From: an uncultured Verrucomicrobiae bacterium
GTDB taxonomy: Bacteria; Verrucomicrobiota; Verrucomicrobiia; Chthoniobacterales; JAATET01
Length of the DNA: 64,000 bases
NCBI GenBank assembly: GCA_963719495.1
Contig: CAVRCI010000009.1
Coordinates: 64,001 to 128,000 of the forward strand
Reading direction: 5' to 3'
The notes under the pieces were generated by a model that was not told the origin of the DNA, ran no database searches, and was given only the letters and a program-made list of their open reading frames with translations. Shown piece by piece: positions 932 to 62,973 of the stretch. Made by a program: the position numbers and the translations under genes. The stretch's first letter is position 1; every line of letters starts with the position of its first letter.

Positions 932-2401
932 ATGAAAGCCTTCCTTGCTCTCGCCCTCGTTGCCCTCGCGTCCAGCTTCACCGCCACCGCCCAGATCCCA
1001 ACCGGTGCCGCCGCCGACCTCGTCCTCGGTCAACCGGATTTCGAAACCAACGGGACCGCCCCAGTCAGCGACACCTCGCTGAACCGTCCGAGGGGGATCG
1101 CCATTGATCCGACCACGGGGAAACTTTTCATTGCCGACACCAACAACAATCGCGTGCTCCGCTATCCATCCATCTCTTCGCTGACGGATGGCACCGCGGC
1201 CGATATCGTCCTCGGGCAAACCAATTTCACCGACGTCGATCCAAACCGAGGGCTAGCAGCTCCGACTGCGAGCACGCTCGACGACCCCAAGGGTCTCGCC
1301 GTTGATGCCGCTGGCAGGCTCTGGGTCGTTGACGAAAACAACAACCGTGTTCTCATGTTCGAGAACGCCTCGGCTCTCACCTCGGGTGCGCCAGCGAGCA
1401 AAGTGCTCGGGCAATCCGACTTCATTTCATTTAACAACGGTTCTTCGGCATCCGGGATGCAGCTCCCAAATAGCCTCCACGTTGATCCAGCCGGGAACCT
1501 CTGGGTCTGCAGTGGGTCAGGAGCCGCCCGAGTAGTCCGCTTCGCAGACGCCGCCAACAAAATGAACGGAGCCGATGCCGATCAAGTCATTGGGCAAGTG
1601 GCCTTCGGCGCGGTTGGCAGCGGACTCGCCGCTGACAAATTTGACAATCCCCAGGGCGTTTTCGTCGACGCGGTCGGCACGCTTTGGGTCGCCGATCATG
1701 CGAACCACCGGGTTGTTGGATTCTCCAATGCCGCCTCACTTGGCAACGGTCCCGACGCCGACCGCGTCTTCGGCCAGCCCGACTTCGTCAGCAACGCGCA
1801 GAACACGACGGCCGACGGGATGGATTCTCCCGTTTCCGTATCGGTCGACCCGTTCGGTGCGCTCTGGGTCATCGAACGCTTGAATAACCGGATGGTCCGA
1901 TTCGACGAAATCTCAACGAAAGCCAACGGAGCCAACGCAGACGGCGTCATCGGGCAAGTCGATTTTGTGTCATCCACCAGCGGTCTTTCGGCCACCAAAC
2001 TTAGTAGCCAATTCACGTCCTCCCTGACCTTCGACGGCTTTGGCAATCTCTGGACGACCGACAATAGCAACAATCGCGCTCTCCGCTTCACCCGCCCACC
2101 AACGCCAGCCGCTCCCCCCGACACGACCCGCCCCGCGATCCGCCTCCGCGGGCGCAAGTCCATCGAGACTCTCCGCAAGCGCGTTGTCGTCCGCGGAACC
2201 GCCACCGACGCCGGCGGCATTTCGGAGATTGACGTCAAGACGCGGCGCGGTGCCGAACTCAAGAAACTGCGGGGAACCATCCGCTGGAAAGCCGTCTTCC
2301 GCGTCACCAAGGACCGCGGACGCGTCGTCGTGAAGTTCCGCGCCGTCGACGCGGCGGGTAATCGCTCCAAAGTCTCCCGCTTCCGCATTCTTCGGCGGTA
2401 G
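932..2401 (+). CDS. Secreted NHL-repeat beta-propeller protein with cationic C-terminal Ig-like module
   Basis: Signal peptide MKAFLALALVALASSFTATA; repeated ADxVLGQxDF...PxGxAxDxxGxLWVxDxxNNRVL units; basic tail ending RILRR. Confidence 0.9.
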   Translation: MKAFLALALVALASSFTATAQIPTGAAADLVLGQPDFETNGTAPVSDTSLNRPRGIAIDPTTGKLFIADTNNNRVLRYPSISSLTDGTAADIVLGQTNFTDVDPNRGLAAPTASTLDDPKGLAVDAAGRLWVVDENNNRVLMFENASALTSGAPASKVLGQSDFISFNNGSSASGMQLPNSLHVDPAGNLWVCSGSGAARVVRFADAANKMNGADADQVIGQVAFGAVGSGLAADKFDNPQGVFVDAVGTLWVADHANHRVVGFSNAASLGNGPDADRVFGQPDFVSNAQNTTADGMDSPVSVSVDPFGALWVIERLNNRMVRFDEISTKANGANADGVIGQVDFVSSTSGLSATKLSSQFTSSLTFDGFGNLWTTDNSNNRALRFTRPPTPAAPPDTTRPAIRLRGRKSIETLRKRVVVRGTATDAGGISEIDVKTRRGAELKKLRGTIRWKAVFRVTKDRGRVVVKFRAVDAAGNRSKVSRFRILRR

Positions 2402-2455
2402 CGGCGAGCCTCCATTTGTCATTCCGCATCTCACATTTCTCAATAGAAGAGACCG

Positions 2456-3859
2456 ATGCTGAATTACATCTGGCTCGGTCTCATCCTCGCGGGCGTCCTT
2501 CTCGGCGCGCTCACCGGGCGGATCGCCGACGTCACGCAGGCGGCGTTCGACTCGACGGAGCTCGCCGTGATGAAGATCGCGCTGCCACTCATCGGCATCA
2601 TGGCCTTCTGGCTCGGCATTATGCGGCTCGCCGAAAAGTCCGGCCTCGTCGCGATCCTCGCGCGCCTCCTCCGACCGGTCCTCACCCGTATTTTCCCCGA
2701 CGTCCCCGCCAGCCACCCCGCGATGGGCAGCATGCTCATGAACATCGCCGCGAACATGCTCGGCCTCGCGAACGCCGCGACGCCCCTCGGCCTCCGCGCC
2801 ATGCAGGATCTCGAGAAGCTCAATCCCCGCCCCGGCACCGCGACCAACGCGATGGTCACCTTCCTCGCGATCAACACCAGCTCCGTGCAGCTCATCCCCG
2901 CCACGACGGTCGCCTACCTCGTCGCCGCCGGATCGCTCAACGCCACCGCCATCATCGGCCCGGCCTTCGTCGCCACCCTCTGCTCCACCATCGTCGGCAT
3001 CACCGCCGCCAAATTCCTGGAAAAACTCCCCACCTACCGCCTCCCCCCGATCCCGGAACCGCCCGAACCACCGAAAAGCGCCGCCGAGCAACCCACCAAT
3101 CACCAGTCACCGGTCACCAATCACGAAACCGAAAAAGCCCCTCCCCCCTTCACCCGCTGGGCCCTCCCCGCCCTCGCCGCGCTTGCGCTCGCCTTCGCGA
3201 CGATCTTCGCGCTCATGGTCTTCACGCCCGAGACGTTCGCCGCCATCGCGAACAACACTCGCGCCGCCCTCGGCCTGGCGGGCGAACCCTTCGCGCTCCC
3301 GGATCGCTGGCTGGGCAATCCCCTCTACCTCCGCGCCATCGACACGATCTCGCTGCTCGCCATCCCGCTGGTGCTGACGTTTTTCCCGCTCTTCGCCGCC
3401 GCGCGCGCCATTCCGGTTTACGAAGAATTCGTCGAAGGCGCGAAGGAAGGCTTCCAGGTCGCGATCCGCATCATTCCATTCCTCGTCGCCATCCTCGTCG
3501 CCATCGGGATGTTCCGTGCCGCCAAGGGGATCGAGCTCATCGCCACCGGTCTCGGGTCGTTCTTCAGCGCCGTCGGATTCCCGGTCGAACTCCTCCCGCT
3601 CGTCCTGATGCGTCCGCTCAGCGGCGGCGGCGCGAGCGGGATCTTCAACGAACTCATCCGCGAGGTCGGACCTGATAGCCTGATCGCCCGGATGGCGTCC
3701 TGCATCATGGGCAGCACGGAGACGACTTTCTACGTGATCGCCGTTTACTTCGGCTCCGTCGCCGTCCGCCGCACGCGCCACGCCGTCCCGGCCGGTCTGC
3801 TCGCCGACGCGACCGGCGTGATCGCGTCGATCATCGTGTGCCGTTTGCTCTTCGCCTGA
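2456..3859 (+). CDS. Fused SpmA/SpmB (nucleoside recognition/gate domain) membrane protein
   Basis: MLNYIW start, NIAANMLGLANAATPLGLRAM (SpmA) and VYEEFVEGAKEG...RPLSGG...GSTETTFYVIAVYFGSV (SpmB) motifs. Confidence 0.9.
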   Translation: MLNYIWLGLILAGVLLGALTGRIADVTQAAFDSTELAVMKIALPLIGIMAFWLGIMRLAEKSGLVAILARLLRPVLTRIFPDVPASHPAMGSMLMNIAANMLGLANAATPLGLRAMQDLEKLNPRPGTATNAMVTFLAINTSSVQLIPATTVAYLVAAGSLNATAIIGPAFVATLCSTIVGITAAKFLEKLPTYRLPPIPEPPEPPKSAAEQPTNHQSPVTNHETEKAPPPFTRWALPALAALALAFATIFALMVFTPETFAAIANNTRAALGLAGEPFALPDRWLGNPLYLRAIDTISLLAIPLVLTFFPLFAAARAIPVYEEFVEGAKEGFQVAIRIIPFLVAILVAIGMFRAAKGIELIATGLGSFFSAVGFPVELLPLVLMRPLSGGGASGIFNELIREVGPDSLIARMASCIMGSTETTFYVIAVYFGSVAVRRTRHAVPAGLLADATGVIASIIVCRLLFA

Positions 3860-3927
3860 GTTGGCTCCCGAACTTTTTGTTGCAACTCGCGGGACATTTC
3901 GGAGAGCTAGAATTCGACCTCCCGCCA

Positions 3928-4620
3928 ATGCCTTTGATCCCCCGCCAACTCTTCGCCGCCACGCTGGTCGTGCTCGCCGCGCTGTCGTCCATCCGCGCCG
4001 GCACGCTCGTGACCATCACCACGCCGGTCGGGACCATGACGCTCGAACTTTATGACGACACGAAGCCCACAACGGTCGCGAATTTTCTCAATTATCTCAA
4101 TAGCGATCGCTACGAAAACCTCTTTGCGCACCGGCTCGATCCCGGGTTTGTTCTGCAGTCCGGCGGATTCACGCTCGTAGGATCAATGCTCACACCGGTC
4201 TCGACCGATCCGCCGATCGCGAACGAATTTACCACCGACGCCCGCTTCAGTAACACGCTGGGAGCCATCGCAATGGCCAAGGTCGGCGGAAACCCTGACT
4301 CCGCCACCTCACAGTGGTTCCTCAACCTCGGCGACAACAGCTTCCTCGATTCGACGAACGGCGGGTTCACCGTCTTTGGACGGGTGGTCTCGGGAATCGA
4401 CGTTCTGCGCAAATTCAACACGGATTTCAATGACAGCACCAGCGGAGCGCAGGGAGTCTACAACAAGAGCGCGGAGTTGGGACCACCTTACGGCGAACTG
4501 CCGCTCCTCGCCGATGCGCTCCAAGTCGGCAACCTCATCTACACAACCGTCGCCATCGTGCCGCCACCACTCCCACCGCCGGGACCCGACGCCCGCCCGG
4601 TCGTAAAGATCAAAGGCTAG
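3928..4620 (+). CDS. Secreted cyclophilin-type peptidyl-prolyl isomerase (stops at a TAG at the start of its C-terminal module)
   Basis: Signal peptide; PTTVANFLNY, HRLDPGFVLQSGG, GAIAMAKVGGNPDSATSQWFLNL, GGFTVFGRV motifs. Confidence 0.9.
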   Translation: MPLIPRQLFAATLVVLAALSSIRAGTLVTITTPVGTMTLELYDDTKPTTVANFLNYLNSDRYENLFAHRLDPGFVLQSGGFTLVGSMLTPVSTDPPIANEFTTDARFSNTLGAIAMAKVGGNPDSATSQWFLNLGDNSFLDSTNGGFTVFGRVVSGIDVLRKFNTDFNDSTSGAQGVYNKSAELGPPYGELPLLADALQVGNLIYTTVAIVPPPLPPPGPDARPVVKIKG

Positions 4621-4860
4621 AAGACCGTAAAAACCAGCCGCTCCCGAATCGTTTTGAAGGGAACCGCCAGCGACGACAACAACGTCGCCAGAATCGAATA
4701 CAAGACCCCCGGGTCAAAATTCACAAAAGCCCGCGGCACCCGCCGCTGGAAGGTCCGCACCCTGCTCCTACCCGGTCGCAACGTCATCAGGATCCGAGCC
4801 GTCGACGCCGCCGGTCAGCGCTCGAAAGTCCAGCGAGTCAAGGTGATCCAGAAAGATTGA
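4621..4860 (+). pseudogene. In-frame continuation of the cyclophilin after TAG 4618-4620: remainder of the cationic C-terminal Ig-like module
   Basis: Same frame; KTVKTSRSRIVLKGTASDD...RAVDAAGQRSK aligns with the tails of five other proteins in the window. Confidence 0.8.
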
Positions 4861-4926
4861 TGCCAAGCGTCCCCTCGCGCTTCCAGCCGATAACCGACCC
4901 AAAGCGAAGCGCAAACTCCGGGAAGT

Positions 4927-5389
4927 TCACCGCTTCCAAGCGTGAAGGATTAGCCCGGAAAAATCACCGGGGGGAATGGACGGCGACGGACGAGTTTCGC
5001 AAAATCGTGGTGGAAAACAGAATAAGACAAAAGCAGCGCCAGCGACCTGGCCACGGCCGCGGGCTCCCGCGTGGATGACGCGATCCACGCAACCCGGCTT
5101 CGCGGACGCAAGATTGGGGGTCGCCCGCATCACGGTAAGCGCGAAGCCCATAGGCTCGACGTCTCCGCTCTCCAAGAGCATTTGAAGCGCCTCGAGCGCT
5201 TTCCGCCTTCGGAACCGAGTAGTGGGTCTGGAAAGCTAAGCAGGCCTCGATGATGGCGATGTCCGCGACCCTGGGTCGATCCGCCCCGCGGAGGCAGCGC
5301 TCCAATTCCTCCCTCGCCTTGGCGGCTTGATCGGGAGGATCTTCCGTCACGAGCCGCACGATGAAGCTCGTATCGAGGGCGGACTTCAT
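4927..5389 (-). pseudogene. PIN-domain (VapC-like) toxin, frameshifted
   Basis: MKSALDTSFIVRLVTEDPPDQA...IIEACLAFQTHYSVPKAE continues in another frame as ALEALQMLLESGDV...KPGCVDRVIH; 3' end uncertain. Confidence 0.7.
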
Positions 5390-5400
5390 CCCTCCGAGTC

Positions 5401-5656
5401 CTAGGCCAGGGCCCGCCCCGCGGAACCTTTGTGTTTCTCGCGGCTCCACGGTTCCTTCGCGCTTCGGGAACATTTCGCGAGAGAGCCGATCCACGAAGAG
5501 CGGCGTTTGACGGGAGGCTTCAGCACCCTGACCGTCTCGCTCTCGTGACGCAGAGGAAGCCATTCCATCGAATTCCCCCGACTGGACTCCCAGCGCCTCA
5601 CAAACCTCGATCGGAAAGGTCGCCTGGCGTTTTGCAGTGAGCTTGATGGTTGCCAT
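5401..5656 (-). pseudogene. AbrB/MazE-type antitoxin, frameshifted
   Basis: MATIKLTAKRQATFPIEVCEALGVQSG is AbrB-like; the likely C-terminus (SMEWLPLRHE...WIGSLAK) lies in another frame after a G5 run. Confidence 0.7.
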
Positions 5657-6019
5657 TGATCACATCGATCACCGACGCCTCACCTGTCAGCCGAAGGTAG
5701 GGCGCTCTCCACGGATGGCCACGTCGCCACCAGGCCCTCATTCGCACCAAGTCCCCGTTTCGACCGAGTTCCGTAAACTCCAACTCCCACCGCGCCGCAG
5801 CGGCTCGCGGGGACGCTCGCCCTCCCCGACCAGCGACTCCCTCACCATTCCCATCGATTCGCATCGATTCGCGTCCATTCGCGGTTCCATTTCTTCCGTT
5901 CCGACAAAATGCAACACCCGCAAAACCCACGGATGACGCGAATGAGGAACTCCGCTACCGTCTCCCACCTGACCTTTCTCCGCGCAGCGCGCGCCGATCT
6001 CCGACAAACCTCACCTTAC

Positions 6020-7876
6020 ATGAATTTCCTCAAACCAATCCTCTGGGGCAACACCGTCGCTCTCTCCTGGATGTGGGGCCTTGGCCTCTTCTTCTCCGTC
6101 CAGTTCACGTCGCAATTCGGTATTCTCGGACTCCTCATGTTCGCGATCCCGAACTTCCTCGGGCTCATGGCGTTCGGCCTCGTGACCCAGGTGATCGCCA
6201 ACCGCGAGTCCGGGAGCGATTCGCTCAACGCCTTTTTCACGAATTGGTCCCGCCCCTTCCGACTCGTCTTCTTCCTTTATCAACTGATCGCCATCACGCT
6301 CACGATCTTCGCGTTCATCCACTACGTCTGGCAGCCCCTCGGCCTCCAGCCCGCCGTCCTTTTTCTCCCGCTCACGCTGCTCATCGTCCTCGCGGCCGCC
6401 ATCCTCTTCGGTGAGGAATTCGACATCCGCCGCATCAAATACTCGCACGCCGTCCTTTTCGGCATCGCCCTGGCCGCCATCCTTGTCCTCATCTTCGGGC
6501 GCGACGATTTCTCCAACCTTTCCTCCCTCACCCCCGACCTCCGTCCCGCCGAGGATCTCAGTTTCTGGGGCTACGTCGTCCCGATCTGCGTTGGCTTCCT
6601 CGTCGGCCCCTGGCTCGACCTGCAGCAGTGGCAGCGCGCCATTCAGATGAACCGCGAGCGCGTCTCGATCGCGTGGTCGTACGTGAGCGGCAGCACGCAA
6701 TTCTTCGCCCTTCTCCTCTTCCACGGCGCCCTCACCCTCTGGGCCCTCGACCTCGGTGCAGCCCAATTCATTCGCACCGGCCTCACCGGCCACACCTACG
6801 GCCAGGACCTCCTCATGCGCTTCTTCTACGAGGCATCGGACAAAGCGCCCTACATCTTCGGTGCCTACTGCGTGTTCGTTTCCGTCTGCGTCCTCACCAC
6901 GCTGGACAGCGGTTACATCGCGCTCCGCTGGTTCCTCCAATCCAACGTCAAAGCCAGCAACCACCCGATCTTCTCGCTCGTCCCGACGAAGCTCGTGACC
7001 TCCCCGATCCCGGCAATGATCGTCTGCGGCGTCATCGGCCTCGCCTCCGCCGTCCTCGGGCTCGAGCTCGAGTATTACATGATTTTCTTCGGCACGTTCT
7101 TCGTCGGCTACGCGACCCTCGGCATCGTCCGTTGCTTCCTCAACAGCCCCGCCAACGCGATCCCGCAGATCAAAATGTTCAGCATCGGCAGCCTCGCGGT
7201 CGTCATTTTCGCGTTCGGTTACTTCCTCCGCAACCCGCTCTTCCAAATGATCGGGTCCATCCTCCCGCTCGCCTACATCCTCTGGCTCCTCCTCAAACCC
7301 GGCTCCGCCGACGAATTCACCACCGACAACGAAGAACTCAACGCCCCCGCCAACCGCTCCTTCGGGGAAGCCACCCCCGACCCTCACCCCACCAATCACC
7401 AGTCACCAGTCACCACTCACGGCTCTGCCCCCGCCCCCCTCACGGCGCACGACCTCGGCGGAAATTTCGAGGAGGACAAGTGGTTCGTCCACCGCTTCAT
7501 TGCCACCTACGCCGACACGAACAGCGTCGGCAACGTCTACTTCGGCATGTACGCCATGTGGGTCGGCAAGACGCGCGAGCTGTTCTTCAACCGCGTGATG
7601 CCGAAGTTCAACATCGCCGAGACCCAGTTCTACATCCTCACCCGATCCTTCGAGCACAAGTTCGTCCGCGAGACCCGCGAGTTCGAAGCCGTGGCCGTCC
7701 GCATCCGGATCTCCAGCTTCAACCGCAAATTCGTGACCCTCGAACACGAGGTCCACGACTCCAAAAACCAACTTTTGGGCAAGGGCAAACAGAGCCTCCT
7801 CTTCGTTGCCTCGTCGGATTATCACATGATCGACATCCCGCACGACGTGCATTCCGCGTTCCTGGTGCACACTTGA
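6020..7876 (+). CDS. Multi-pass membrane transporter-like protein fused to a C-terminal hotdog-fold thioesterase
   Basis: About 430 aa of successive hydrophobic segments, a Pro/Thr linker, then YADTNSVGNVYFGMYAMWVGKTRELFF (4HBT/hotdog thioesterase motif). Confidence 0.8.
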   Translation: MNFLKPILWGNTVALSWMWGLGLFFSVQFTSQFGILGLLMFAIPNFLGLMAFGLVTQVIANRESGSDSLNAFFTNWSRPFRLVFFLYQLIAITLTIFAFIHYVWQPLGLQPAVLFLPLTLLIVLAAAILFGEEFDIRRIKYSHAVLFGIALAAILVLIFGRDDFSNLSSLTPDLRPAEDLSFWGYVVPICVGFLVGPWLDLQQWQRAIQMNRERVSIAWSYVSGSTQFFALLLFHGALTLWALDLGAAQFIRTGLTGHTYGQDLLMRFFYEASDKAPYIFGAYCVFVSVCVLTTLDSGYIALRWFLQSNVKASNHPIFSLVPTKLVTSPIPAMIVCGVIGLASAVLGLELEYYMIFFGTFFVGYATLGIVRCFLNSPANAIPQIKMFSIGSLAVVIFAFGYFLRNPLFQMIGSILPLAYILWLLLKPGSADEFTTDNEELNAPANRSFGEATPDPHPTNHQSPVTTHGSAPAPLTAHDLGGNFEEDKWFVHRFIATYADTNSVGNVYFGMYAMWVGKTRELFFNRVMPKFNIAETQFYILTRSFEHKFVRETREFEAVAVRIRISSFNRKFVTLEHEVHDSKNQLLGKGKQSLLFVASSDYHMIDIPHDVHSAFLVHT

Positions 7877-7919
7877 CGGGGTGTTGTTGGTTGTTGGTTT
7901 TTAGTTATTGGTAGGAGAG

Positions 7920-9242
7920 ATGCCGCACCGCCTCTCTCTCTTACTCTCAATCGTCGTCATTCTCTCCGCCTGCGATCCAGCCCCGCGGTCGGAAAATGCC
8001 GATCCCGCCAATACCCCCACGCCAACACCCCCGCCAATCACCACTCACCAGTCACCAATCACCACCCCCCCCCCACCCCCCACACCCGTCCCGATCCCGG
8101 CAGTCCCCCGCAAACGAATCGACGTCTCCAAGCTCTACAACGACGTCCTCGTCGAATCGAAATTCGTCACCATCCCCAGCGACCGCACCGCAACCCAGGA
8201 TCGCGCCGACGATTCCAGCTACGGACTCAAGCTCACCGTCGAAGCCCGCATCCCGTCACCCAGCGCCGACTTCGCCTCCGTCGCCCGCAACACCCCCAAG
8301 CTTCCCACGGCTCTCCCCGGTCTCGCCGAGCTTTTCTCGACCGCCAAGGTCTCGCCCGCCTTCGCCGAGCTCTACGATCGCAAAGTCACGTACACGAAAG
8401 CCCGCCTCAATCGCCTCGACACCCTCCTCACCCGCCACAACTTCTTCGACTGCGACACGATTCTCGAACTCCAGAATCCCGTCACCGGACGCCGCGCGCT
8501 TTTCCTTCAAGGCGACATGGACGTCAATACCGACGGCTCCGACGGCGACCGCAATTTCACCGTCGACGGCGATTCGCAGTTCTTCCAACCCCAGACCAGC
8601 TACCGCTGGAAACGCCTCACCGACCGCCCCAACCCCTTCCTCGCCCTCACCCAGCGCCTCCTCGCGGAAGCCGAGAAGGAATACGAAATCGTCGGCCTCC
8701 CCGTCGACCGGAACCGCCAGCTCGAAGCCACGATCGCCCACGAGAAAGCCACCCTCTACGAGATCGACGTCTACAGCTTTCTCATCTCCGGAGCCGACCC
8801 CTTCATCGTCCTCCCCGGCTTCATGATCCGCGACGCCACCGGCCCGTTCGCCCCGAAGATCGGCGACTACGCCGCCGTCATCTACGACGGCATCACCTAC
8901 CCCGCCCTCCTCGGCGACGTCGGGCCGTCCTTCAAAATGGGCGAAGCCTCCCTCCGCATCACCAAGGAGCTCAATCCGAGGAGTTCCGCCTTCTCCCGAC
9001 CCGTCAGCACCCTCGACGTCACCTACCTCGTCTTCCCGGGCACCGCCGAGCCGGAGTCCGGCCCACCCGACCTCGCCCACTGGCAATCGAAAGTCACCAC
9101 CTACCTCGCGGATTTGGGACTCAAACCAACGAACCTCCACGCGTGGGAAAACGTCATCCAACCCTGGCCAACCCCCACGCCAAGTCCGACTCCGGCACCG
9201 ACCCCAACTCCGTCCCCCCCGCCAACGCAAAGCCTGAACTAG
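7920..9242 (+). CDS. Lipoprotein with glycoside hydrolase family 75 (chitosanase-like) domain
   Basis: Lipobox ILSAC; DMDVNTDGS, FIVLP, GDYAAVIY...GDVGPSFKMGEASL, VTYLVFPG motifs; AGGAG RBS upstream. Confidence 0.8.
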   Translation: MPHRLSLLLSIVVILSACDPAPRSENADPANTPTPTPPPITTHQSPITTPPPPPTPVPIPAVPRKRIDVSKLYNDVLVESKFVTIPSDRTATQDRADDSSYGLKLTVEARIPSPSADFASVARNTPKLPTALPGLAELFSTAKVSPAFAELYDRKVTYTKARLNRLDTLLTRHNFFDCDTILELQNPVTGRRALFLQGDMDVNTDGSDGDRNFTVDGDSQFFQPQTSYRWKRLTDRPNPFLALTQRLLAEAEKEYEIVGLPVDRNRQLEATIAHEKATLYEIDVYSFLISGADPFIVLPGFMIRDATGPFAPKIGDYAAVIYDGITYPALLGDVGPSFKMGEASLRITKELNPRSSAFSRPVSTLDVTYLVFPGTAEPESGPPDLAHWQSKVTTYLADLGLKPTNLHAWENVIQPWPTPTPSPTPAPTPTPSPPPTQSLN

Positions 9243-9317
9243 GCCTCCCCCGCGCCATCCGCTTCCAGCCGATATATCCCCATTGCGAAGCGCAAATTCC
9301 GCCATCGCGAGATCGAC

Positions 9318-9680
9318 TTACGATCCAGCCGTCGCCGTTTCACGAGCCGCGGCACTCGCACGAGCCGCGCTCCCGCGACCCGCACCCTTCCGGCGATCCG
9401 GACCCGAATAGAGCTCGCCACGTTCCGCCGGCGGAGTCGCCGCGAACTGCGTCCCCAACCGCGCGGAACCCGGGTCGTCCCACCTTTCGATCACCAGCTC
9501 GTCCTCGCGTTTCTTGGGACTGACCAGTGCGAAAAACACTCCGGAGACGACCGCAAGGGCAATGAGAATCGGCCCCACCGCCGTGCCCAGGGTGTTTGTC
9601 CCCGAGATCAACACAACTCCGCGGCAGACGAAAAACGTCGCAAGGCCAAAAATCGCAAATCGAGCAAGGAACCGAATCAT
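9318..9680 (-). CDS. Small hypothetical membrane protein
   Basis: Two hydrophobic segments followed by a charged tail; fills the gap between larger genes. Confidence 0.5.
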   Translation of the reverse strand: MIRFLARFAIFGLATFFVCRGVVLISGTNTLGTAVGPILIALAVVSGVFFALVSPKKREDELVIERWDDPGSARLGTQFAATPPAERGELYSGPDRRKGAGRGSAARASAAARETATAGS

Positions 9681-11110: not shown

Positions 11111-11120
11111 ATTCGCGTTC

Positions 11121-52901: not shown

Positions 52902-53348
52902 GGCTCCGGTGTTGACTCGCTCGCTCCCGCTCGTCTCGCCCTTCGGGCTGCATTGCAGAGCCAATGCAGTCTGCCCCGAGCGTGGACTCGCGCTCTCCCG
53001 AGCGTCTCGCCCTTCGGGCTGCATCGCAGAGCCGATGCAGTCTGCCCCGAGCCTTCCCAGGCTCCGGTGCTCCCAGGCTCCGGTGTTGACTCGCTCGCTC
53101 CCGCTCGTCTCGCCCTTCGGGCTGCATTGCAGAGCCAATGCAGTCTGCCCCGAGCGTGGACTCGCGCTCTCCCGAGCGTCTCGCCCTTCGGGCTGCATCG
53201 CAGAGCCGATGCAGTCTGCCCCGAGCCTTCCCAGGCTCCGGTGCTCCCAGGCTCCGGTGTTGACTCGCTCGCTCCCGCTCGTCTCGCCCTTCGGGCTGCA
53301 TTGCAGAGCCAATGCAGTCTGCCCCGAGCCTTCCCAGGCTCCGGTGCT
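52902..53348. repeat. Tandem array, 174-bp period (~2.5 units), containing five copies of a 48-bp structured core
   Basis: Units start at 52902, 53076, 53250; cores at 52933, 53004, 53107, 53178, 53281. Confidence 0.95.
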
Positions 53349-54718: not shown

Positions 54719-54725
54719 GCTCAGG

Positions 54726-54784
54726 GGGGAACGCACGCCTCCCGGCGTGCGAGCAACGGCGTCCCGCCGTTGCTTCCCGGCAAA
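54726..54784. repeat. Dispersed double-hairpin REP-like element (copy 3)
   Basis: GCACGCC-TCCC-GGCGTGC and GCAACGGCG-TCC-CGCCGTTGC. Confidence 0.85.
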
Positions 54785-54821
54785 GCGCCAGCGAGCCGAC
54801 CGCAGTTCACCTTTCACCCCT

Positions 54822-55817
54822 TTGCGACCTTTGCGACCTTCTGTTCAAAAAGCATTTGAGAACCTCCCCTCGTCGCGCCTGATCCTCGCGATCTCCGGCG
54901 GCCTTGACTCCCTGACCCTCCTCCACGCCCTCGTCGCATCAGGCCGTAAAAACCTCATCGTCGCCCACCTCGACCACCGCCTCCGCGGCCGCGCCTCCAC
55001 CGCCGACGCCACCTTCGTCAAAAAACAAGCCACCCGCCTCGGCCTCCCCCTCTTCACCGGACGCGCCGACACCCGAGCCTACGCCGCTGCCCGCGGCGTC
55101 TCGCTCGAACTCGCCGCCCGCGAGCTCCGCCACACCTTCTTCGCAGCCGCCGCCCGCGCCCACCGCTGCAACGACATCGTCCTCGCCCACCACGCCGACG
55201 ACCAGATCGAGACCATCCTCCACAACTTCCTCCGCGGCACCGGCCCCACCGGACTCACCGGCATGAAGGCGGAGACCCGCCTTCAGGTCGACCACCGCAC
55301 CCTCACCCTCCACCGCCCCCTCCTCGCCATCCGCCGATCCGAGATCGACGCCTACGTCCGCGACCAAAAAATCCCGTTTCGCGAAGACGCCAGCAACCGC
55401 GACCCCGCCCACACCCGCAACCGCCTCCGCCACGAACTCCTCCCCCTCATCGAGCGCACCTACGGCCCCTCCTTCGCCGAAGCCGCCCTCCGCAACGCCG
55501 ACATCCTCCGCGCCGAGGACGCGCACCTCACCGCCCAAGCCGCCACCTTCCCGCTCTCCCCCGAACTCCCCGTCCGCGACCTCCGCGCCGCCCCCGTCGC
55601 CATCCAGCGCCGCGTCATCCGAGCCTGGCTCAAACGTCACGCCATCCCCACCCCCGGCCTCGCCGAAATCGACCGCGTCCTGACTCTCCTCGCCCCCAAC
55701 GGCCCGGCAAAAATCAATCTCCCCGCCAACCACCACGCCCGCCGCCGCCAGGGAACCCTTTTCGTAGAAAAGCCATCCAAGAAAAACACCGGAGGGCGAG
55801 GCTCCGCCGAGCCGTAA
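54822..55817 (+). CDS. tilS: tRNA(Ile)-lysidine synthetase
   Basis: AISGGLDS PP-loop, AHLDHRLR, AHHADDQIET, RPLL, EDASN, RNRLR; start (TTG) uncertain. Confidence 0.95.
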   Translation: MRPLRPSVQKAFENLPSSRLILAISGGLDSLTLLHALVASGRKNLIVAHLDHRLRGRASTADATFVKKQATRLGLPLFTGRADTRAYAAARGVSLELAARELRHTFFAAAARAHRCNDIVLAHHADDQIETILHNFLRGTGPTGLTGMKAETRLQVDHRTLTLHRPLLAIRRSEIDAYVRDQKIPFREDASNRDPAHTRNRLRHELLPLIERTYGPSFAEAALRNADILRAEDAHLTAQAATFPLSPELPVRDLRAAPVAIQRRVIRAWLKRHAIPTPGLAEIDRVLTLLAPNGPAKINLPANHHARRRQGTLFVEKPSKKNTGGRGSAEP

Positions 55818-55900
55818 CCATCACCCAGCGCCCCGCCGCGCCCAAAGAATTTGAACCCTCACCAATCCTCATCTACGTTCCCGACACCAACGCCCGCCGC

Positions 55901-57364
55901 ATGAAAAACCATCTCTTCACCACCCTCGCCGCTCTCGCCACCCTCACTCTGGCGCTCACCACCCCCTCCCGCGCCCAGTTCACCAACGGCCAACCCGCCG
56001 ACCTCGTTCTCTTCCAGCCGGATTTCACCTCCACGGCCAACGGCTCGTCCGCCCGCCGCGCGTTCATACCCGCCGGAATCGCCATCGATCCGACGACCGG
56101 CAAACTCTTCGTCGTCGACAATGGAAACAACCGCGTTCTCCGGTTCGCGAACGTCTTCTCCCTCGTCACCAACGCCGGTGCGGAAGCCGTGATCGGACAA
56201 ACCAATTTTTCGTCGAGCACAAACGCGACTTCGCAGACCGGTCTCGACATGCCCAACGGCATCACCGTGGACCGCTTCGGCCGCCTCTGGGTCGCCGACA
56301 CCGGCAATAACCGCGTCCTCATGTGGGAAGCCGCGTCATCCCGTTCCACCGGCGCAGCCGCTGACGCCGTTTTCGGCCAATCGACGTTCATCGGCAACGT
56401 CGCCACGACCGCCATCAATCGAATGAACGGCCCACGTTCCGTGCTCGTGGACGAAGCCGACCGACTGTGGGTTGTCGATACCAACAACCACCGCGTCCTC
56501 CGATTCGATTCCATCTCGAGCCAGCTCAACGGGACCAACGCCGATGCCGTTCTCGGCCAGTTGAATTTCACCAACAACTCCTTTGGGACGACCGATTCCA
56601 CTCTACGGACGCCCACCGAACTCGCCATCGACGCCACGGGCCGCCTTTGGGTCGCCGACACCTCGAACGCTCGCGTTCTTCGCTTCGACAACGCCGCAGC
56701 CAAAGCCAACGGCGCGGCCGCCGACGGCGTCTTGGGTCAGACCGATTTCGTAAGCGGGACTGCGGCGCCGCCGCTCACGGCCTCAACTCTCGCGGTTCCC
56801 GTTGGCCTCGCCCTCGCTCCCAACGGCGACCTCTGGGTGTCCGATCTCACCGCCGCTCGTGCCATTGGCTTCTCAAACCCGGCCCTCCTCGCGAATGGCG
56901 CGCCCGCCGCGAAAGTCCTCGGGCAAGCCGACTTTGCCAACGTGGAAGCCGCGACCACCGCCGTCGGACCCATCTTCAGCACCGGCCTCACCTTCGACAC
57001 CGCCGGACGCCTCTGGACCTCCAACAACGGCGGCCACCGCGTCCTCCGATTCACCCCGCCGCCCCCCGCGGCGGCCATCGCCGACACGTCCTCACCGACG
57101 ATCAAAGTCCGCGGCCGCAAATCCATCGACTCCACCCGCAACCGCATCGTCCTCCGCGGCACCGCCGCCGACGACACCGCCGTCGCCGGGATCGAATACA
57201 AAGTCTCCGGTCAGCGAGGCCTCCAGTCCGGCAAGGGAACGACCAACTGGAAAGCCATCATCCGCCCCGACAAAAACAAACGCAAAACCGTCGTCCGAGT
57301 CCGCGCCATCGATGCCTCCGGCAACCGATCCCGCTTCCTCAAAATCAAAATCTTCCGCCGCTGA
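55901..57364 (+). CDS. Secreted NHL-repeat protein with cationic C-terminal Ig-like module
   Basis: Signal peptide ending SRA; NHL repeats; tail ending IKIFRR. Confidence 0.9.
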   Translation: MKNHLFTTLAALATLTLALTTPSRAQFTNGQPADLVLFQPDFTSTANGSSARRAFIPAGIAIDPTTGKLFVVDNGNNRVLRFANVFSLVTNAGAEAVIGQTNFSSSTNATSQTGLDMPNGITVDRFGRLWVADTGNNRVLMWEAASSRSTGAAADAVFGQSTFIGNVATTAINRMNGPRSVLVDEADRLWVVDTNNHRVLRFDSISSQLNGTNADAVLGQLNFTNNSFGTTDSTLRTPTELAIDATGRLWVADTSNARVLRFDNAAAKANGAAADGVLGQTDFVSGTAAPPLTASTLAVPVGLALAPNGDLWVSDLTAARAIGFSNPALLANGAPAAKVLGQADFANVEAATTAVGPIFSTGLTFDTAGRLWTSNNGGHRVLRFTPPPPAAAIADTSSPTIKVRGRKSIDSTRNRIVLRGTAADDTAVAGIEYKVSGQRGLQSGKGTTNWKAIIRPDKNKRKTVVRVRAIDASGNRSRFLKIKIFRR

Positions 57365-57444
57365 TCCAATCAAGAGCGGCCCGGCAACTGCCAGACGACC
57401 AACCCGACCGGCGAAGCCGCACTCCCCCCAATCCGAAATTCCGC

Positions 57445-58995
57445 CTACCGCCGCAAAATCCGCACCTTCGCCCGCTTCGACTTCAGCCCCACCCCATCGA
57501 CCGCCCGCAACTTCACGATCACGCGCCCTCGATCCTTCCGCACCCGCAGCACGACCTTGAACTTGTCACCGCCCTTGACCTTCGACTTCGCCACCTTCGC
57601 ACCGCGCGCCCGCACCTCGATCCGCGCGATCCCCGAAGCATCCGAAGCCGTCCCCCGAATTACCACCCGTTTCCGCAACGTCTCGATCGTCTTCCGACCC
57701 CGCACCTTGAGCGTTGGATTCCGGACATCGATCTGCCCGCCGCCCGGAGCCGGCTCCACCACCGGATCGAACGGAAACCGCAGCACGCGGCTATTCTGAC
57801 CGTCTGCCACCCACAGGTCGCCATTCTCGTCGACAAAACTCTGACTCGAAAATTCCAGGTTGAGCCTCCGAGCCGACGGTGGCGGCGTGATTCCGCCGCT
57901 TCCGCTCACGAAATCCGCCTGTCCGATCACCACACTCGCGGTCGCCAGCGTCGGAGGCAACGCCACCGTGTCAAATCGGAGCACCCGATTCTGCGTCGAA
58001 TCCGTGACCCACAACCGCCCGTCGTCGTCCGCGTGCGCCCCAGTCGGCTCGCGCAGCCGTTGGGCCGACACCCCCATCGCCTTCTCCGTGAACGAACTCT
58101 GACCCACCACCACATCGGCAAACGCCCCATCCGACCGGATCGCTGCGTTGAAGTAGCCAACAACCCGGTTGTTGACGGAATCGGCCACCCACAAAATCCC
58201 CCGCGAATCGACCTGAACACTCGTCGGGTTGGCCAGCTTCGATGCCGTGACACCCGGTAGCCGGGTCGTGAAGCTCGTCTGCCCAAAGACCCGGTCCGCC
58301 GCCGCGCCGTTCGCCTTCGACAATGCTGCGGTGAATTTGAGAACCCGGTTGTCGAACTCATCCGCAATCCACAGGTTGCCGACCCCATCCGCCCAAACGT
58401 CGATGGGGGTAAACTCGTCAGCCGACGTTCCAGCCGCGCCGGAAAGCGTCACGAAATCCGGACGCCCCAGCACCAGATCGGCATCGGGGTAATTCCCGAG
58501 ATTTGCCGCGTCGCGAAAGAGCAGAACCCGCTCATTATTCCCGTCGGCCACCCACAGATTTCCACTCGGGTCGACCGACAAACCCTTGGGGCGATTGAGA
58601 TTTTTCCGCGTGGGGAAATTTGTCCCCGCGTTGAAGTCGCCCGAGGTGAAGTCGGGTTGCCCGATCACCGCTTCCGCCGCCGCCCCGTTCCGCAAACCCG
58701 CCCGATCCCCGTAACGCAGGACGCGGTGATTTCGCAGGTCACTCACGAAGACCTTCCCGGACACCGGGTCGATCGCGATGTCCGTCGGACCATTCAGCGA
58801 CGACGCGCTCGTCGGCTCCGGGAACGGGTTCGTGAACCCCGGGTCGCCCAACACTAGGTCCGCACTCGCAAACGTCTCGATCTCACCCCGCGCCCCCGGC
58901 ACCGCCACGACCCACGTGAACCCCACGGCCACCACGCACAACCAATTCCACCTCATCACTTTTGCTCCGTTTGTCCTTTGCATTTTCATTGTCAT
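57445..58995 (-). CDS. Secreted NHL-repeat protein with cationic C-terminal Ig-like module
   Basis: Signal-like N-terminus; NHL repeats; tail ending RILRR; start may be 58956. Confidence 0.88.
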   Translation of the reverse strand: MTMKMQRTNGAKVMRWNWLCVVAVGFTWVVAVPGARGEIETFASADLVLGDPGFTNPFPEPTSASSLNGPTDIAIDPVSGKVFVSDLRNHRVLRYGDRAGLRNGAAAEAVIGQPDFTSGDFNAGTNFPTRKNLNRPKGLSVDPSGNLWVADGNNERVLLFRDAANLGNYPDADLVLGRPDFVTLSGAAGTSADEFTPIDVWADGVGNLWIADEFDNRVLKFTAALSKANGAAADRVFGQTSFTTRLPGVTASKLANPTSVQVDSRGILWVADSVNNRVVGYFNAAIRSDGAFADVVVGQSSFTEKAMGVSAQRLREPTGAHADDDGRLWVTDSTQNRVLRFDTVALPPTLATASVVIGQADFVSGSGGITPPPSARRLNLEFSSQSFVDENGDLWVADGQNSRVLRFPFDPVVEPAPGGGQIDVRNPTLKVRGRKTIETLRKRVVIRGTASDASGIARIEVRARGAKVAKSKVKGGDKFKVVLRVRKDRGRVIVKLRAVDGVGLKSKRAKVRILRR

Positions 58996-59009
58996 TAAAC
59001 CAAGACGCC

Positions 59010-60497
59010 TCACCGCCGCAAGATCCGGAACCGCTCCCGCTTCGATTTCAGCCCGACCCCATCGACCGCCCGCAACTTCGCGACCACCCGACCCCGGTCC
59101 TTGCGCACCCGCAGCACGACCTTGAACGAGTCGTTCCCCTTCACCTTCGACTTCACGACCTTCGCCCCCCGCACCTTCACCTCGATCCGCGCGATCCCCG
59201 ACGCGTCTGCCGCCGTCCCCCGGATCACCACCCGCTTGCGCAGGGTCTCGATCGTCTTCCGACCCCGCACTCGGATCGTCGGCCTCGTCACGTCCGCCAC
59301 GACCACGGGGTCCCGCGGCCGGGAGAATCGCAGCACCCGGTTGTTACCAGCGTCGGCAACCCAAAGATCCCCGTTCGCTTCGACGTGAAGACCACCGTCC
59401 GAGAGTCCCCCCAGCGGGCGATCACTACTCAACCGGTTGGCGGCGAGACCGAAGTCATCCGAATCGAAGTCACTTTGTCCGATCACGGCATCCGCATCGC
59501 CCCCGTTCGGCTTGCTCGCAACCGAGTTAAAGCGAAGGACGCGATTATTTTGATCATCCTTGACCCACAAGGCGCCAAGATCGTCCGTGTAAACGTCCGA
59601 GCACAGGCTCATCCCCGAGGCGGACGTGGTTTGCACTCGCACGGTGAACGAAGTCTGACCCAACAACCGGGTGGCAACCGTATTCGGCAGCGCACCACTC
59701 GCCGTTTCAAAGCCCAGGACGCGGCTATTGAAAATATCGGCAACCCAGAGCGTGCCGTTCGCATCGCGGTCCAGACCGCGCGGCCCATTCAGCGCCGTAG
59801 CTGACCTTCCAGAATCGTCCGTCATGTAATCCGGCTGACCGTAAACGGCGTCAGCCGGGGCACCGTTCGTTTTGTTCGCCGCATCGGTGAAAGCGAGAAT
59901 CCGGTTATGACTGGAATCCGAGACGAACAGATTGCCAAAATCATCGACGGTCACACCGCTCGGCGATCTCATCCCGGTCCGGGTGAGTTGGGACGAATCA
60001 TCGGTCAAATTGGCCTGACCCAAGACCAAATCAGGTAGGAAAGCGACCCCCGGCACCACAACCCGGTTCGCGGCGTTTTCAAACATCAATACGCGATTAT
60101 GAGAGGTGTCCGCGACCCAAAGCCGTCCGGCCGAGTCCAGGGCAACACTGGAGGGACTGTTCAACGATCTCTCACGACCTCCCGGCAGCGGGTTCCCGTC
60201 GAGGTCCATTCTTCCGAAGACGGCCTCGGCATCGGCGTTGTTCGCCAAGGCATCGTTCGACGCAAACCGAAGAATGCGGTCGCGTCGCCGGTCCACCACA
60301 AAGACCTTGCCGGTCGCGGGATCGACCACGACATCGCGCGGTTCTTCCAAGGAGCTCGCACTCGTTGATCGCAGGGTGTTGGTCGTAAAATCCGGTTGAC
60401 CCAACACCAAATCTGCGTTCGCAAAGGTGGGGATCTGCGCCGAAACCGGCACGGCGACAAAACAGGCGCAGCAAAGTAGAGCCTTCAAGGATTGCAT
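59010..60497 (-). CDS. Secreted NHL-repeat protein with cationic C-terminal Ig-like module
   Basis: MQSLKALLCCACFVAVPVSA signal; NHL repeats; tail ending RILRR. Confidence 0.9.
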   Translation of the reverse strand: MQSLKALLCCACFVAVPVSAQIPTFANADLVLGQPDFTTNTLRSTSASSLEEPRDVVVDPATGKVFVVDRRRDRILRFASNDALANNADAEAVFGRMDLDGNPLPGGRERSLNSPSSVALDSAGRLWVADTSHNRVLMFENAANRVVVPGVAFLPDLVLGQANLTDDSSQLTRTGMRSPSGVTVDDFGNLFVSDSSHNRILAFTDAANKTNGAPADAVYGQPDYMTDDSGRSATALNGPRGLDRDANGTLWVADIFNSRVLGFETASGALPNTVATRLLGQTSFTVRVQTTSASGMSLCSDVYTDDLGALWVKDDQNNRVLRFNSVASKPNGGDADAVIGQSDFDSDDFGLAANRLSSDRPLGGLSDGGLHVEANGDLWVADAGNNRVLRFSRPRDPVVVADVTRPTIRVRGRKTIETLRKRVVIRGTAADASGIARIEVKVRGAKVVKSKVKGNDSFKVVLRVRKDRGRVVAKLRAVDGVGLKSKRERFRILRR

Positions 60498-60654
60498 CGT
60501 TAAGGGGTAGCACATCTGGGCAAAAGCGCTTCCGCAATTTTTCGCCCGGACTTCCGGCCGCTCGATCCGCCGGCCGATCGATCCGAAGCCGAAACGGGAT
60601 CGGACCGGTTCAAAGGCCGGGGAGGGCTTCCGCTCACGCCGAAGGTGACTTCAC

Positions 60655-62973
60655 CTACCGCCGCAGGATGCGGAACCTCACCCGCTTCGACTTCAGCCCC
60701 GCCCCGTCGACCGCCCGCAATTTCACAATCACCCGCCCGCGATCCTTCCGGACCCGCAGCACAACTTTGACTGTCCCGTTCCCGCGCACCTTCGCTTTCG
60801 CGACCTTCGCACCCGGAGCCCGCACCTCGATCCGAGCGATCCCCGACGCGTCCGACGCCGTCCCCCGGATCACCACCCGCTTGCGCAACGTCTCGATCGT
60901 CTTCCGACCCCGCACCCGCAACGTGGGTCGCTTCGTGTCGGTCACCCCCGGCGCGACGATTTCCGGCGTGATCGTGAACGCGTAGGCCGCGCCCGAACTC
61001 GCAGCCAAGGCATTGTCCAAGGCGGGGTCATTTACCGGGACAAACGCCGTGCTGTCCTCGAGTCTCGCCCCCACCAGCGCCAACTCCACCGAGATCCCCA
61101 CCGCGCCACCGAAGCGGTCATCCGTCCCGGTGTTCGACGCTTTCAGATAGCTCTGCTGACCCCACACCCCGCCGACCCGACGGAAGACGTAAGCCGCCCC
61201 CGAATTTCCCGCGCCCAGATTCACCTCGCTCCCGTTCACCCCGGTCGAATCGCTGTCCTCGAACTCCGCACCCACGATGAGCGCATCCCCGGAGATCGCC
61301 ACCGACGTCCCGAATTCATTGCCGACCCCGTTGGTCGACGATTTCAGGTAGGCTTGCTGCGGCCACAACGCCCCGCTCCGCGCAAAGACGTAGGCCGCGC
61401 CCGCGTTGTTCGCACCGTCGCCCTCTCCACCATTCACCCCCGTCGCCGGACTGTCCTCGTTCGGAGCGCCGACGATGATTGTGTCGCCCGAGATCGCCAC
61501 AGCGATCCCGAATTCATCGTCCGCCCCCGGCGTCGACGCCTTCAATTGAGCCTCTGGCGTCCATACCCCCAGCGTCCGCACGTAGACGTAGGCCGCTCCT
61601 TCGTCGTCCTCAACGCCATCCTGGTTTCGGGCACCGACCACCGCCCGGTCACCCGACAACCCCACCGAGCCGCCGAAGCGATCCTCATCCCCCGAGTCCG
61701 TCGCCTTCAGGTAGGCCTCCTGATTCCAAATTCCCCCGCTCCGAACGAAAACGTAGGCCGCCCCAACGTTCGTCCCCGTGTCGCCCTCTGCACCGCCCAC
61801 GCCATTGGACGTGCTGTCCTCGAAATCCGCCCCGACCACGAGCGTGTCACCCGAGATCGCGACCGAAATCCCAAACCGATCCCCGCCCCCCGCGTTGCTC
61901 GCTTTGAGAAAACCATCCGGAAACCACAGCGTCCCCGTCCGTCGGAAAACGTAAGCCGCCCCCGAGTTGGCCGCCATGTCGTCCTCCGAGTCCGCTCCGA
62001 CCACCACGCGATTTCCGTCGATCGCCACGGCCCCGCCAAACCCATCCCCGTCGCCGGTGTTCGACGCCTTGAGATACGCCTGAAACTGCCACCCGCCAGC
62101 CGTCCGCACGAAAATGTAGGCCGCCCCCGAGTTCGACGACGAATCGTTCGTCGCGACACCGTTCACGTTCACGGCGTTGCTGTCCTCCTGCGGCGCCCCC
62201 ACCACCGCCGTATTCCCCGAAATGGCCACCGCCGCGCCGAAGAGATCGTTCGCGTCCACCGACGACGCCTTGAAGAGCACCTCCTGCGCCACCGGGTCGA
62301 TCGTCACCGGATACCGCGCCCCCCGCTCGTCCACCTCGATCCGCACCCCGCCATCGCCCGCCGCGACGAACTCGACCGGCAGCCGCCGCCCGTCCGCGTC
62401 CCACGCCAACAATCCGCCGTAGGTCAGCACCACCGCCTCGTCCGCGTTCACGAAGGAGACCGCGCCCGCCTCGACCCGCGGCTTGAGATCGCCTCGCACC
62501 GCCAATTCCAGCCCCAGTCGCGGCCCCGCCGAGTCCCCAGCCGGACGCTCCGTCAACGTCCATCCCTGCTGCAATCCTCCCGCCGAGTTCACGAACCATT
62601 CGTAGATCCCTTCCGCCCGCTTCACCGCCAGCCGGTTCTCATCGGCCCGCATCCAGGCGGCTCCCGACACCGCAGCGGCCTCGTCCCCGAAACCCACCGC
62701 GCTCAACTCCAATCCCCAAGTCCACTCCCCGGTCCGCGCGACGAATCCGCCGTCTTCGAATTCCGCGAGCCAACCCACCCCCGGACGTTCCGCCGCGAAG
62801 CGACCCTCCGACGTTTCGACGAAGGCATGCCGCTTCGCGTCGTAAGCCGCCCGGAGGCCGCTCCAATCCGCGGCACTCACCGCGGACGGTCGATCCGTCG
62901 GAGCCGCGAGCGCCGCGGCACCGGTCAGCGTGAAAATGGAAAGGACTCGGACGAGGAAGGTCGTTGTTTTCAT
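60655..62973 (-). CDS. Secreted FG-GAP (integrin-alpha-like) repeat protein with cationic C-terminal Ig-like module
   Basis: Signal peptide; seven FG.aVAISG...VGA..ED...GAAYVF repeats; tail ending RILRR. Confidence 0.92.
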   Translation of the reverse strand: MKTTTFLVRVLSIFTLTGAAALAAPTDRPSAVSAADWSGLRAAYDAKRHAFVETSEGRFAAERPGVGWLAEFEDGGFVARTGEWTWGLELSAVGFGDEAAAVSGAAWMRADENRLAVKRAEGIYEWFVNSAGGLQQGWTLTERPAGDSAGPRLGLELAVRGDLKPRVEAGAVSFVNADEAVVLTYGGLLAWDADGRRLPVEFVAAGDGGVRIEVDERGARYPVTIDPVAQEVLFKASSVDANDLFGAAVAISGNTAVVGAPQEDSNAVNVNGVATNDSSSNSGAAYIFVRTAGGWQFQAYLKASNTGDGDGFGGAVAIDGNRVVVGADSEDDMAANSGAAYVFRRTGTLWFPDGFLKASNAGGGDRFGISVAISGDTLVVGADFEDSTSNGVGGAEGDTGTNVGAAYVFVRSGGIWNQEAYLKATDSGDEDRFGGSVGLSGDRAVVGARNQDGVEDDEGAAYVYVRTLGVWTPEAQLKASTPGADDEFGIAVAISGDTIIVGAPNEDSPATGVNGGEGDGANNAGAAYVFARSGALWPQQAYLKSSTNGVGNEFGTSVAISGDALIVGAEFEDSDSTGVNGSEVNLGAGNSGAAYVFRRVGGVWGQQSYLKASNTGTDDRFGGAVGISVELALVGARLEDSTAFVPVNDPALDNALAASSGAAYAFTITPEIVAPGVTDTKRPTLRVRGRKTIETLRKRVVIRGTASDASGIARIEVRAPGAKVAKAKVRGNGTVKVVLRVRKDRGRVIVKLRAVDGAGLKSKRVRFRILRR

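Follow-up and report, generated by a model that had tools for sequence, protein, structure and literature searches.

The window analyzed in this work is a stretch of 64,000 nucleotides from an uncultured Verrucomicrobiae bacterium (GenBank assembly GCA_963719495.1, contig CAVRCI010000009.1, positions 64,001 to 128,000). It contains six genes of predicted secreted proteins that share a strongly basic immunoglobulin-like (Ig-like) domain at the C-terminus, here called the tail (Table 1). All six genes were found where an earlier reading of the window, made from the sequence alone (the sequence-only reading), had placed them, with signal-peptide-like N-termini (judged throughout by eye and with a hydrophobicity heuristic, not with SignalP) and a Pro-containing linker, which that reading had called Pro-rich. 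The domains that precede the tail (passengers) agree with its description as well: four NHL propellers (PF01436), one FG-GAP_2 protein (PF14312) and one cyclophilin (PF00160), all above the Pfam cut-off. The claim that the same module ends all six proteins stands for five genes, which encode it intact with 93-94 residues, a net charge of +17 to +25 and 26-34% Lys and Arg, and which terminate with RILRR (four genes) or KIFRR (one gene), as described; it fails for the cyclophilin gene, in which the module is interrupted by a TAG codon. The only Pfam family reported for the tails of the window was Big_7, below the threshold, and no NCBIfam model scored above its cut-off.

Table 1. Genes encoding tail proteins in the window and the position of their tails (window coordinates)
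Feature	Position	Strand	Remarks
Secreted NHL-propeller protein with tail, 489 aa	932..2401	+	NHL by Pfam PF01436
Cationic Ig-like tail, 93 aa	2120..2401	+	Net charge +21, end RILRR
Secreted cyclophilin fused to tail	3928..4860	+	Interrupted by in-frame TAG; intact orthologue in G003
Cyclophilin's cationic tail, 90 codons with read-through	4588..4860	+	Net charge +19, end VIQKD
In-frame TAG within the cyclophilin tail	4618..4620	+	Lys in the G003 orthologue; error or nonsense mutation
Secreted NHL-propeller protein with tail, 487 aa	55901..57364	+	
Cationic tail, 93 aa	57083..57364	+	Net charge +17, end KIFRR; row 1 of the folded alignment
Secreted NHL-propeller protein with tail	57445..58956	-	Probable start at 58956; open frame extends to 59013
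Cationic tail, 94 aa	57445..57729	-	Net charge +25; 87% identity to the tail of the FG-GAP protein (60655)
Secreted NHL-propeller protein with tail, 501 aa	59010..60515	-	
Cationic tail, 94 aa	59010..59294	-	Net charge +23
Secreted FG-GAP-repeat protein with tail, 772 aa	60655..62973	-	
Cationic tail, 94 aa	60655..60939	-	Net charge +25

A profile hidden Markov model (HMM) built from the six tails and iterated to convergence over the 56,578 stop-to-stop frames of this genome (E-value ≤ 1e-3) reported 48 matches in 48 separate frames. The distance from the tail to the stop codon is 0-23 residues in all 48 cases, with no more than 3 residues in 42 of them and extensions of 4-23 residues in the other 6. 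The family is not a product of chance, since reversed frames gave no match at E-value ≤ 1e-3 (best E-value: 0.0095) and none of 960 shuffled tails scored at E-value ≤ 10. The net charge of the tails of this genome ranges from +11 to +27 (mean +19; Arg 16.9%, Lys 9.6%); the passenger frames carry between -7.5 and +1.5 net charges per 100 residues in 43 of 45 cases, with two outliers near +12. As had been claimed, the tails lack a transmembrane (TM) helix, because the maximal mean hydropathy in a 19-residue window (Kyte-Doolittle) is only 1.49 over all tails of the genome. Signal-peptide-like starts were recognized in 39 of the 48 frames, and the 4 genes split by TAG possess one upstream in frame; the rest comprises 4 frameshifted frames and 1 ambiguous frame. 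The 45 passengers with sufficient length for a comparison fall into 24 BLAST groups, and the Pfam names among the 31 scanned include RCC1/DUF5122, BNR, GSDH, reprolysin, matrixin, GDSL lipase, 5'-nucleotidase, DUF4394, DUF7453 and pAdhesive_15, among others. By type, the passengers include pectate-lyase-like, sorbosone-dehydrogenase-like, choice-of-anchor A/pAdhesive_15 and large repeat proteins (largest frame: 2858 codons). Thus, the many terminal matches on diverse signal-peptide passengers that the sequence-only reading had expected from a profile search are present in this genome; its statement that the module is always last and single-copy holds for 48 of 48 frames here, but has exceptions in relatives. 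Many of the copies sit in tandem paralogue clusters. Tails are also shuffled among passengers: 52 of the 80 tail pairs with at least 60% identity are attached to unrelated passengers, for instance the 87% identical pair from the NHL gene at 57445 and the FG-GAP gene at 60655. Two small proteins of this genome (G000; G, C and L numbers denote genomes, contigs and loci) have no passenger and are limited to a signal peptide followed by the tail (C6:138088-138510, L016; C9:206908-207261, L026).

The AlphaFold2 model of the tail is a seven-strand Ig sandwich (pLDDT 96.2, pTM 0.84), in line with the bacterial Ig-like fold proposed from the sequence pattern. The best fold match was domain B of glucodextranase (1ulv, Z-score: 11.1, root-mean-square deviation: 1.7, 83 residues), tied with the Ig domain of sulfite dehydrogenase (8s5s, Z-score: 11.0); the ESM Atlas provided leads only, all with scores under 0.9. 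The profile matched the Ig repeats of MpAFP (4p99), SiiE (2yn3) and Bap, and 15 of 44 tails matched Big_7 at E-value ≤ 0.01. Only one tail out of 44 passed the Pfam gathering cut-off (Big_7, score: 25.3 vs 24.1). The other 43 tails stay under the Pfam cut-offs, and the module is a basic offshoot of the common Big_7/Glucodextran_B Ig repeat. No paper describing the domain was among those listed in the literature searches, which left subscription papers and supplements outside. The profile matches 22,129 library proteins, of which the top 150 are all multi-copy tandem Ig proteins, so that this figure is no measure of the size of the tail subfamily; the 814 domains of 124 top library matches have a mean net charge of -4.9 and include only 11 terminal copies. 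Likewise, all 25 domains from 19 loci of other Verrucomicrobiota are located at least 203 residues from the protein end and carry a net charge of -9 to +3. Short standalone homologues make up 4 of 1153 candidates. FastTree placed 64 of the 67 family tails apart from all 25 neutral copies (support: 0.895), a grouping that may be driven by shared composition. A match to a characterized Pfam domain, or a mostly internal or tandem occurrence, was to count against the sequence-only reading, and this applies in part, as the relatives of the module by sequence are internal and tandem. Because of the homology to Big_7, the neutral charge and internal position of the generic copies, and the tree grouping, we see in the tail no new fold but a subfamily, derived from a common Ig repeat, that is basic and terminal.

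Among the columns of the 67 tails, only two Gly, one Trp and one Ala are conserved at ≥90%, and neither an invariant polar residue nor a cleavage motif was found. The columns rich in Lys or Arg are spread across most strands, and the charge is preserved even where the residue is switched, with 17% Arg and 10% Lys in genus g1 and 13% Lys and 9% Arg in genus g4. Given the homology to common Big repeats and the abundance of tandem paralogue clusters, the tail could be viewed as an ordinary Ig spacer that was spread by duplication and whose charge has no special role. We find this hardly credible: terminal position and charge have shifted together with respect to the generic family, the charge is maintained with different residues in three genera, and highly similar tails occur on unrelated passengers.

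The homologues bear the names Chthoniobacterales bacterium, Terrimicrobiaceae bacterium and uncultured Verrucomicrobiae. Fourteen of 16 genomes of the same family contain 18-83 tail matches each, and both genomes of genus g3 contain none. Outside the family, one weak match was detected in 1 of 14 other families, and 1-3 matches in 8 of 154 genomes of an order-wide sample. Among five of these 8 genomes that were inspected, two basic terminal copies occur in G444 and one neutral terminal copy in G437, and in the others the matches are internal or weak. Homologues from the remainder of the phylum match weakly, lie inside their proteins, often in tandem, and are neutral or acidic. All 40 distinct matches in the 30 best loci sampled from three genomes of other genera are terminal, with a mean net charge of +17 (one frame is cut by the locus edge). 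The lineage specificity assumed earlier is thus borne out by 14 of the 16 family genomes, together with the rarity and mostly weak or internal character of matches elsewhere. Genus g3 was considered as a natural knockout, but it offers no clean contrast, because it lacks passengers as well: neither the NHL family (E-value ≤ 1e-25, 0 of 2 genomes) nor matrixin (0 of 2) was found there. The FG-GAP protein and DUF7453 gave no match in the tail-less genomes, in searches that had no positive control. The G015 genome contains a tandem array of ~30 kb (C10:115317-145757, L115, L116) with ~20 tail genes, in which near-identical Lys-rich tails follow diverse passengers; two PEP-CTERM genes adjoin it.

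PEP-CTERM proteins (32 by HMM, 50 by pattern) and 2 exosortases are encoded in the same genome, and the two kinds of termini are swapped on homologous passengers, so the earlier suggestion that the tail works alongside PEP-CTERM is supported as to their co-occurrence. The cyclophilin of the window is similar (62% over 202 aa) to a paralogue (C13:584263) that runs into a PEP-CTERM-like VPES tail from the same Val-Pro; other cyclophilin copies exhibit VPEP/IPEP PEP-CTERM tails in G002, G004 and G005, and the module in G003 and G004. A second pair is formed by FG-GAP proteins (42% over 355 aa), one with the tail (C7:158097) and one with PEP-CTERM (C13:312019). Mutual exclusion of the tail and PEP-CTERM at the level of genomes was not seen, as PEP-CTERM occurs in 27 of 31 genomes, including all 16 of the family. 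By sequence, then, the tail is a genuine C-terminal module that has expanded in one lineage, bears no annotation and trades places with PEP-CTERM.

Additional termini occupy the same slot. Sequence-unrelated but equally basic beta-type tails end NHL proteins in G010 and G011 as well as a protein of this genome. Strongly basic tails of this kind, without a profile match or Pfam family, were noted in G000 (C2:356338-357792, L152; C1:389814-390866, L153), G011 (L126) and G010 (L130). Where NHL, cyclophilin and subtilase passengers occur in other Verrucomicrobiota, their copies of the domain are neutral and internal, and the terminus is an FYR tail ([FY][FY]R), which is also present in four proteins of G000 (C1:177450, C2:692216, C13:40060 and C13:436717). 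Mutual exclusion was not seen here either, since the two tails coexist in 13 of the 16 family genomes, according to an 8-row FYR profile of low sensitivity. One protein from G015 (C94, L189, P0210) combines two acidic internal Ig copies with a different basic terminal domain, whose ending we take to resemble actinobacterial basic tails.

[quoted passage not shown] The tail could by analogy be a folded export signal, read by the type II secretion system (T2SS) or by a putative translocon of the family and possibly cleaved later. This would agree with its terminal position, the frequent signal peptides, the all-or-none spread across the family, the replacement of PEP-CTERM, itself a sorting signal, and the existence of proteins that pair a signal peptide with the tail only. 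However, the searches for dedicated machinery described below returned none. PorV had no match in this genome (98.6% complete), whereas the positive control matched; the SprA_N model gave no match anywhere and is therefore uninformative, and PorU and PorK-N were not searched. None of the T9SS CTD models (PF18962, TIGR04183, TIGR04131) matched any of 44 tails at E-value ≤ 0.01, and no entry titled T9SS CTD was among the fold matches listed. Five secretin genes are present in the genome, one of them in a cluster (C2:391585-402070) that by eye reads as a type II secretion operon, with gene labels that are our presumption; that secretin was, however, detected in 29 of the 31 relatives, and the two tail-less g3 genomes are among them. 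Two secretin genes (835 and 865 aa) are adjacent to each other in G000 (C2:213570-218694), beside genes that look PilM/N/O-like by eye. No non-passenger neighbour recurs across genera in the fetched loci, mostly ~3 kb long and not amounting to a genome-wide profile, which contain only passengers, signalling and housekeeping genes. The PorV, secretin and neighbour results and the lack of an invariant polar motif do not support the sequence-only reading where it postulated an export signal with its own system. Extensions of 4-23 residues are tolerated behind the tail, and unrelated basic tails substitute for it, so that we deem an export signal rather unlikely. In a bolder version, for which the odds seem slightly poorer still, the tail would be the address label of an undescribed export or display pathway of Chthoniobacterales that runs parallel to PEP-CTERM; it would then be a CTD analogue, evolved independently from a Big repeat and read by charge and fold via the T2SS or a new translocon.

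An explanation of the tail has to account for its terminal position, its charge, its Big_7/Glucodextran_B homology, its expansion in one lineage, its shuffling among passengers and its interchange with PEP-CTERM. We propose that it may serve as a retained, non-covalent anchor to an anionic polymer of the cell surface (lipopolysaccharide (LPS), capsule or exopolysaccharide), and assign to this reading a probability of about 0.5. The signal peptide would direct the protein through Sec, the protein would fold in the periplasm, and it would cross the outer membrane via the general T2SS, the only suitable route found in the genome. The Pro-rich linker would then keep the mostly acidic passenger off the surface, while the domain with its charge of ~+19 would bind phosphate or carboxylate groups and stay uncleaved on the mature protein. 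In evolution, a neutral stalk repeat may have been reduced to one terminal copy that gained Lys and Arg at outward-facing positions; across three genera of a single family of Chthoniobacterales type, the resulting basic tail may then have been passed on to numerous enzymes and adhesins of the surface, as a second option besides PEP-CTERM. Precedents exist for the individual elements: the C-terminal TAB domain of Lactobacillus SlpA is reported to bind teichoic acid via a highly positive region (excerpt of PMC11181022), and S-layer proteins of Aeromonas to be secreted by the T2SS and held non-covalently on LPS (excerpt of PMC13721041). Recognition by charge rather than by a motif is favored because the charge is conserved while the residues vary, because Lys and Arg are spread over the strands and because unrelated basic tails fill the same slot. 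For the same reasons, namely conservation of charge instead of a motif and the unrelated basic tails, we favor the anchor over the export signal.

Several points weigh against the anchor. The strictly terminal position, for which simple electrostatics has no need, fits an export signal equally well. G008 contains a tandem pair of copies with a net charge of only +5 each, G012 has a tandem pair in which the last 85 residues carry +3, and the terminal copy of G437 has a net charge of 0. The likeness of the unrelated basic tails to the module is one of charge and of the slot that they fill. A domain with a charge of +19 would also encounter anionic lipids and peptidoglycan in the course of export. 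Moreover, surface exposure is an assumption of the model, and the proteins could remain in the periplasm, where the basic tail would tether them to peptidoglycan, anionic glucans or membrane lipids. A Sec signal by itself leads to the periplasm, the cyclophilin and sorbosone-dehydrogenase-like passengers are plausible there, and the PorV and secretin searches revealed no dedicated route across the outer membrane; yet many passengers are of a surface type (choice-of-anchor A/pAdhesive_15, proteases, repeat proteins of up to 2858 codons), and we consider a periplasmic location very unlikely. The same charge could also serve for binding of polyanions outside the cell, such as extracellular DNA, biofilm matrix, clay or humic particles or other cells, and thus for keeping the proteins near the colony. 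In keeping with this, the passengers include matrixins, reprolysin, a GDSL lipase, a 5'-nucleotidase, pectate-lyase-like and adhesive domains, and the only sequencing run that overlaps the stretch in part comes from a sediment metagenome, perhaps the source sample. On the other hand, the tail exchanges exactly with the membrane-anchored PEP-CTERM tail, which suggests retention on the cell, and binding to outside polyanions appears unlikely to us, although less so than the periplasmic tether. The surface anchor remains the reading that we prefer.

The TAG in the cyclophilin gene (start 3928) is located ten codons into the module, and the frame runs on to a TGA at 4858-4860; in the G003 orthologue the fusion is intact. 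Interruptions affect 8 of the 48 tail genes in total, with an in-frame TAG in 4 of them and an apparent frameshift in the other 4. Amber recoding was considered and rejected, as TAG regularly serves as a terminal stop (in 559 of the 2478 called genes >600 nt) and no suppressor (CUA) was found among the 53 tRNAs of the genome. The reads from the one DNA run are patchy over the stretch and leave position 4618 unsettled, and no RNA run is listed as containing it. In simple terms, the TAG can be read as an error of the assembly or as a nonsense mutation of recent date, because of the Lys in G003, the lack of a suppressor tRNA, the normal use of TAG as a stop and the other interrupted genes.

A gene at 63053-64078 (minus strand) lies directly upstream of the co-oriented trio of tail genes at 62973-57445; as judged by eye, it encodes a LuxR-like C-terminal helix-turn-helix and is a possible regulator. 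Two kinds of repeats were noted elsewhere in the window. A 7-base tandem repeat of ~4.4 copies occurs at 3094-3124, 7390-7420 and 8034-8064 (5 motif matches vs 0 in 100 shuffles) and lies in frame within at least two genes of membrane proteins, where it encodes the same short peptide. A 174-base unit is repeated 2.5 times with 100% identity at 52902-53329, just upstream of a gene that presumably encodes a seryl-tRNA synthetase.

With respect to known families, the tail is homologous in sequence and similar in predicted fold to Big_7 (PF17957), Glucodextran_B (PF09136), Big_6 (PF17936) and Big_13 (PF19077) (structures 1ulv/1ug9, 2yn3 and 4p99). Those generic repeats are internal, often tandem and neutral to acidic, whereas the tail is terminal, nearly always single and charged ~+19. 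With the T9SS CTD of Bacteroidota (type A: TIGR04183/PF18962; type B: TIGR04131) it shares the terminal seven-strand sandwich on unrelated signal-peptide proteins, but it is matched by none of the CTD models, occurs here without PorV and is far more basic along its full length; moreover, the CTD is known for cleavage and attachment to anionic LPS (A-LPS), while the tail is known from its sequence. The FYR tail of Verrucomicrobia is found at the end of the same kinds of passengers, but is a different, non-basic domain.

The closest functional parallel is PEP-CTERM/exosortase (TIGR02595, PF09721): both tails are C-terminal, present in many copies per genome, combined with signal peptides and interchangeable on the same passengers. 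PEP-CTERM, however, comprises a motif and a TM helix (excerpt of PMC1569441), and the tail is a folded, soluble domain of 93 aa without a signature motif or TM helix, for which no cognate enzyme was found among the neighbouring genes. Compared with the tripartite signals in general (PEP-CTERM, LPXTG, MYXO-CTERM), it exhibits the non-membrane attributes, namely a C-terminal location, many copies per genome, signal peptides, unrelated passengers and homologues with another tail, and lacks the motif and the TM helix. Homologues with another tail are part of the attribute list for C-terminal sorting domains given by Haft (in the available part of bioRxiv 10.1101/2023.06.07.544157), and the tail matches the meaning of "choice-of-anchor" as defined in a passage of bioRxiv 10.1101/2023.03.06.531300. 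Between about 20 and 80 proteins per genome carry this unannotated module in one family of uncultured Verrucomicrobiota, so that a single HMM lists their likely surface proteome, and the natural swap of PEP-CTERM and the tail on the cyclophilin provides a ready matched pair for the role of either tail. Were the tail an export signal, it would be relevant to the selection of folded cargo in type II secretion, and if it belonged to a separate pathway, that route would gain in it a first C-terminal signal of a simple and portable kind.

SLH, GW and choline-binding repeats are non-covalent anchors of the cell envelope. The positive character expected from an anchor to polyanions is conserved in the tail (+11 to +27, with Lys/Arg columns across the strands), and the C-terminal basic module that resembles it most is the TAB domain of SlpA (excerpt of PMC11181022), although for the tail the anchoring on an anionic envelope polymer is only putative. 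These domains have unrelated folds, belong to monoderms and are mostly repeats, whereas the tail consists of just one Ig domain and occurs in a diderm. [quoted passage not shown]

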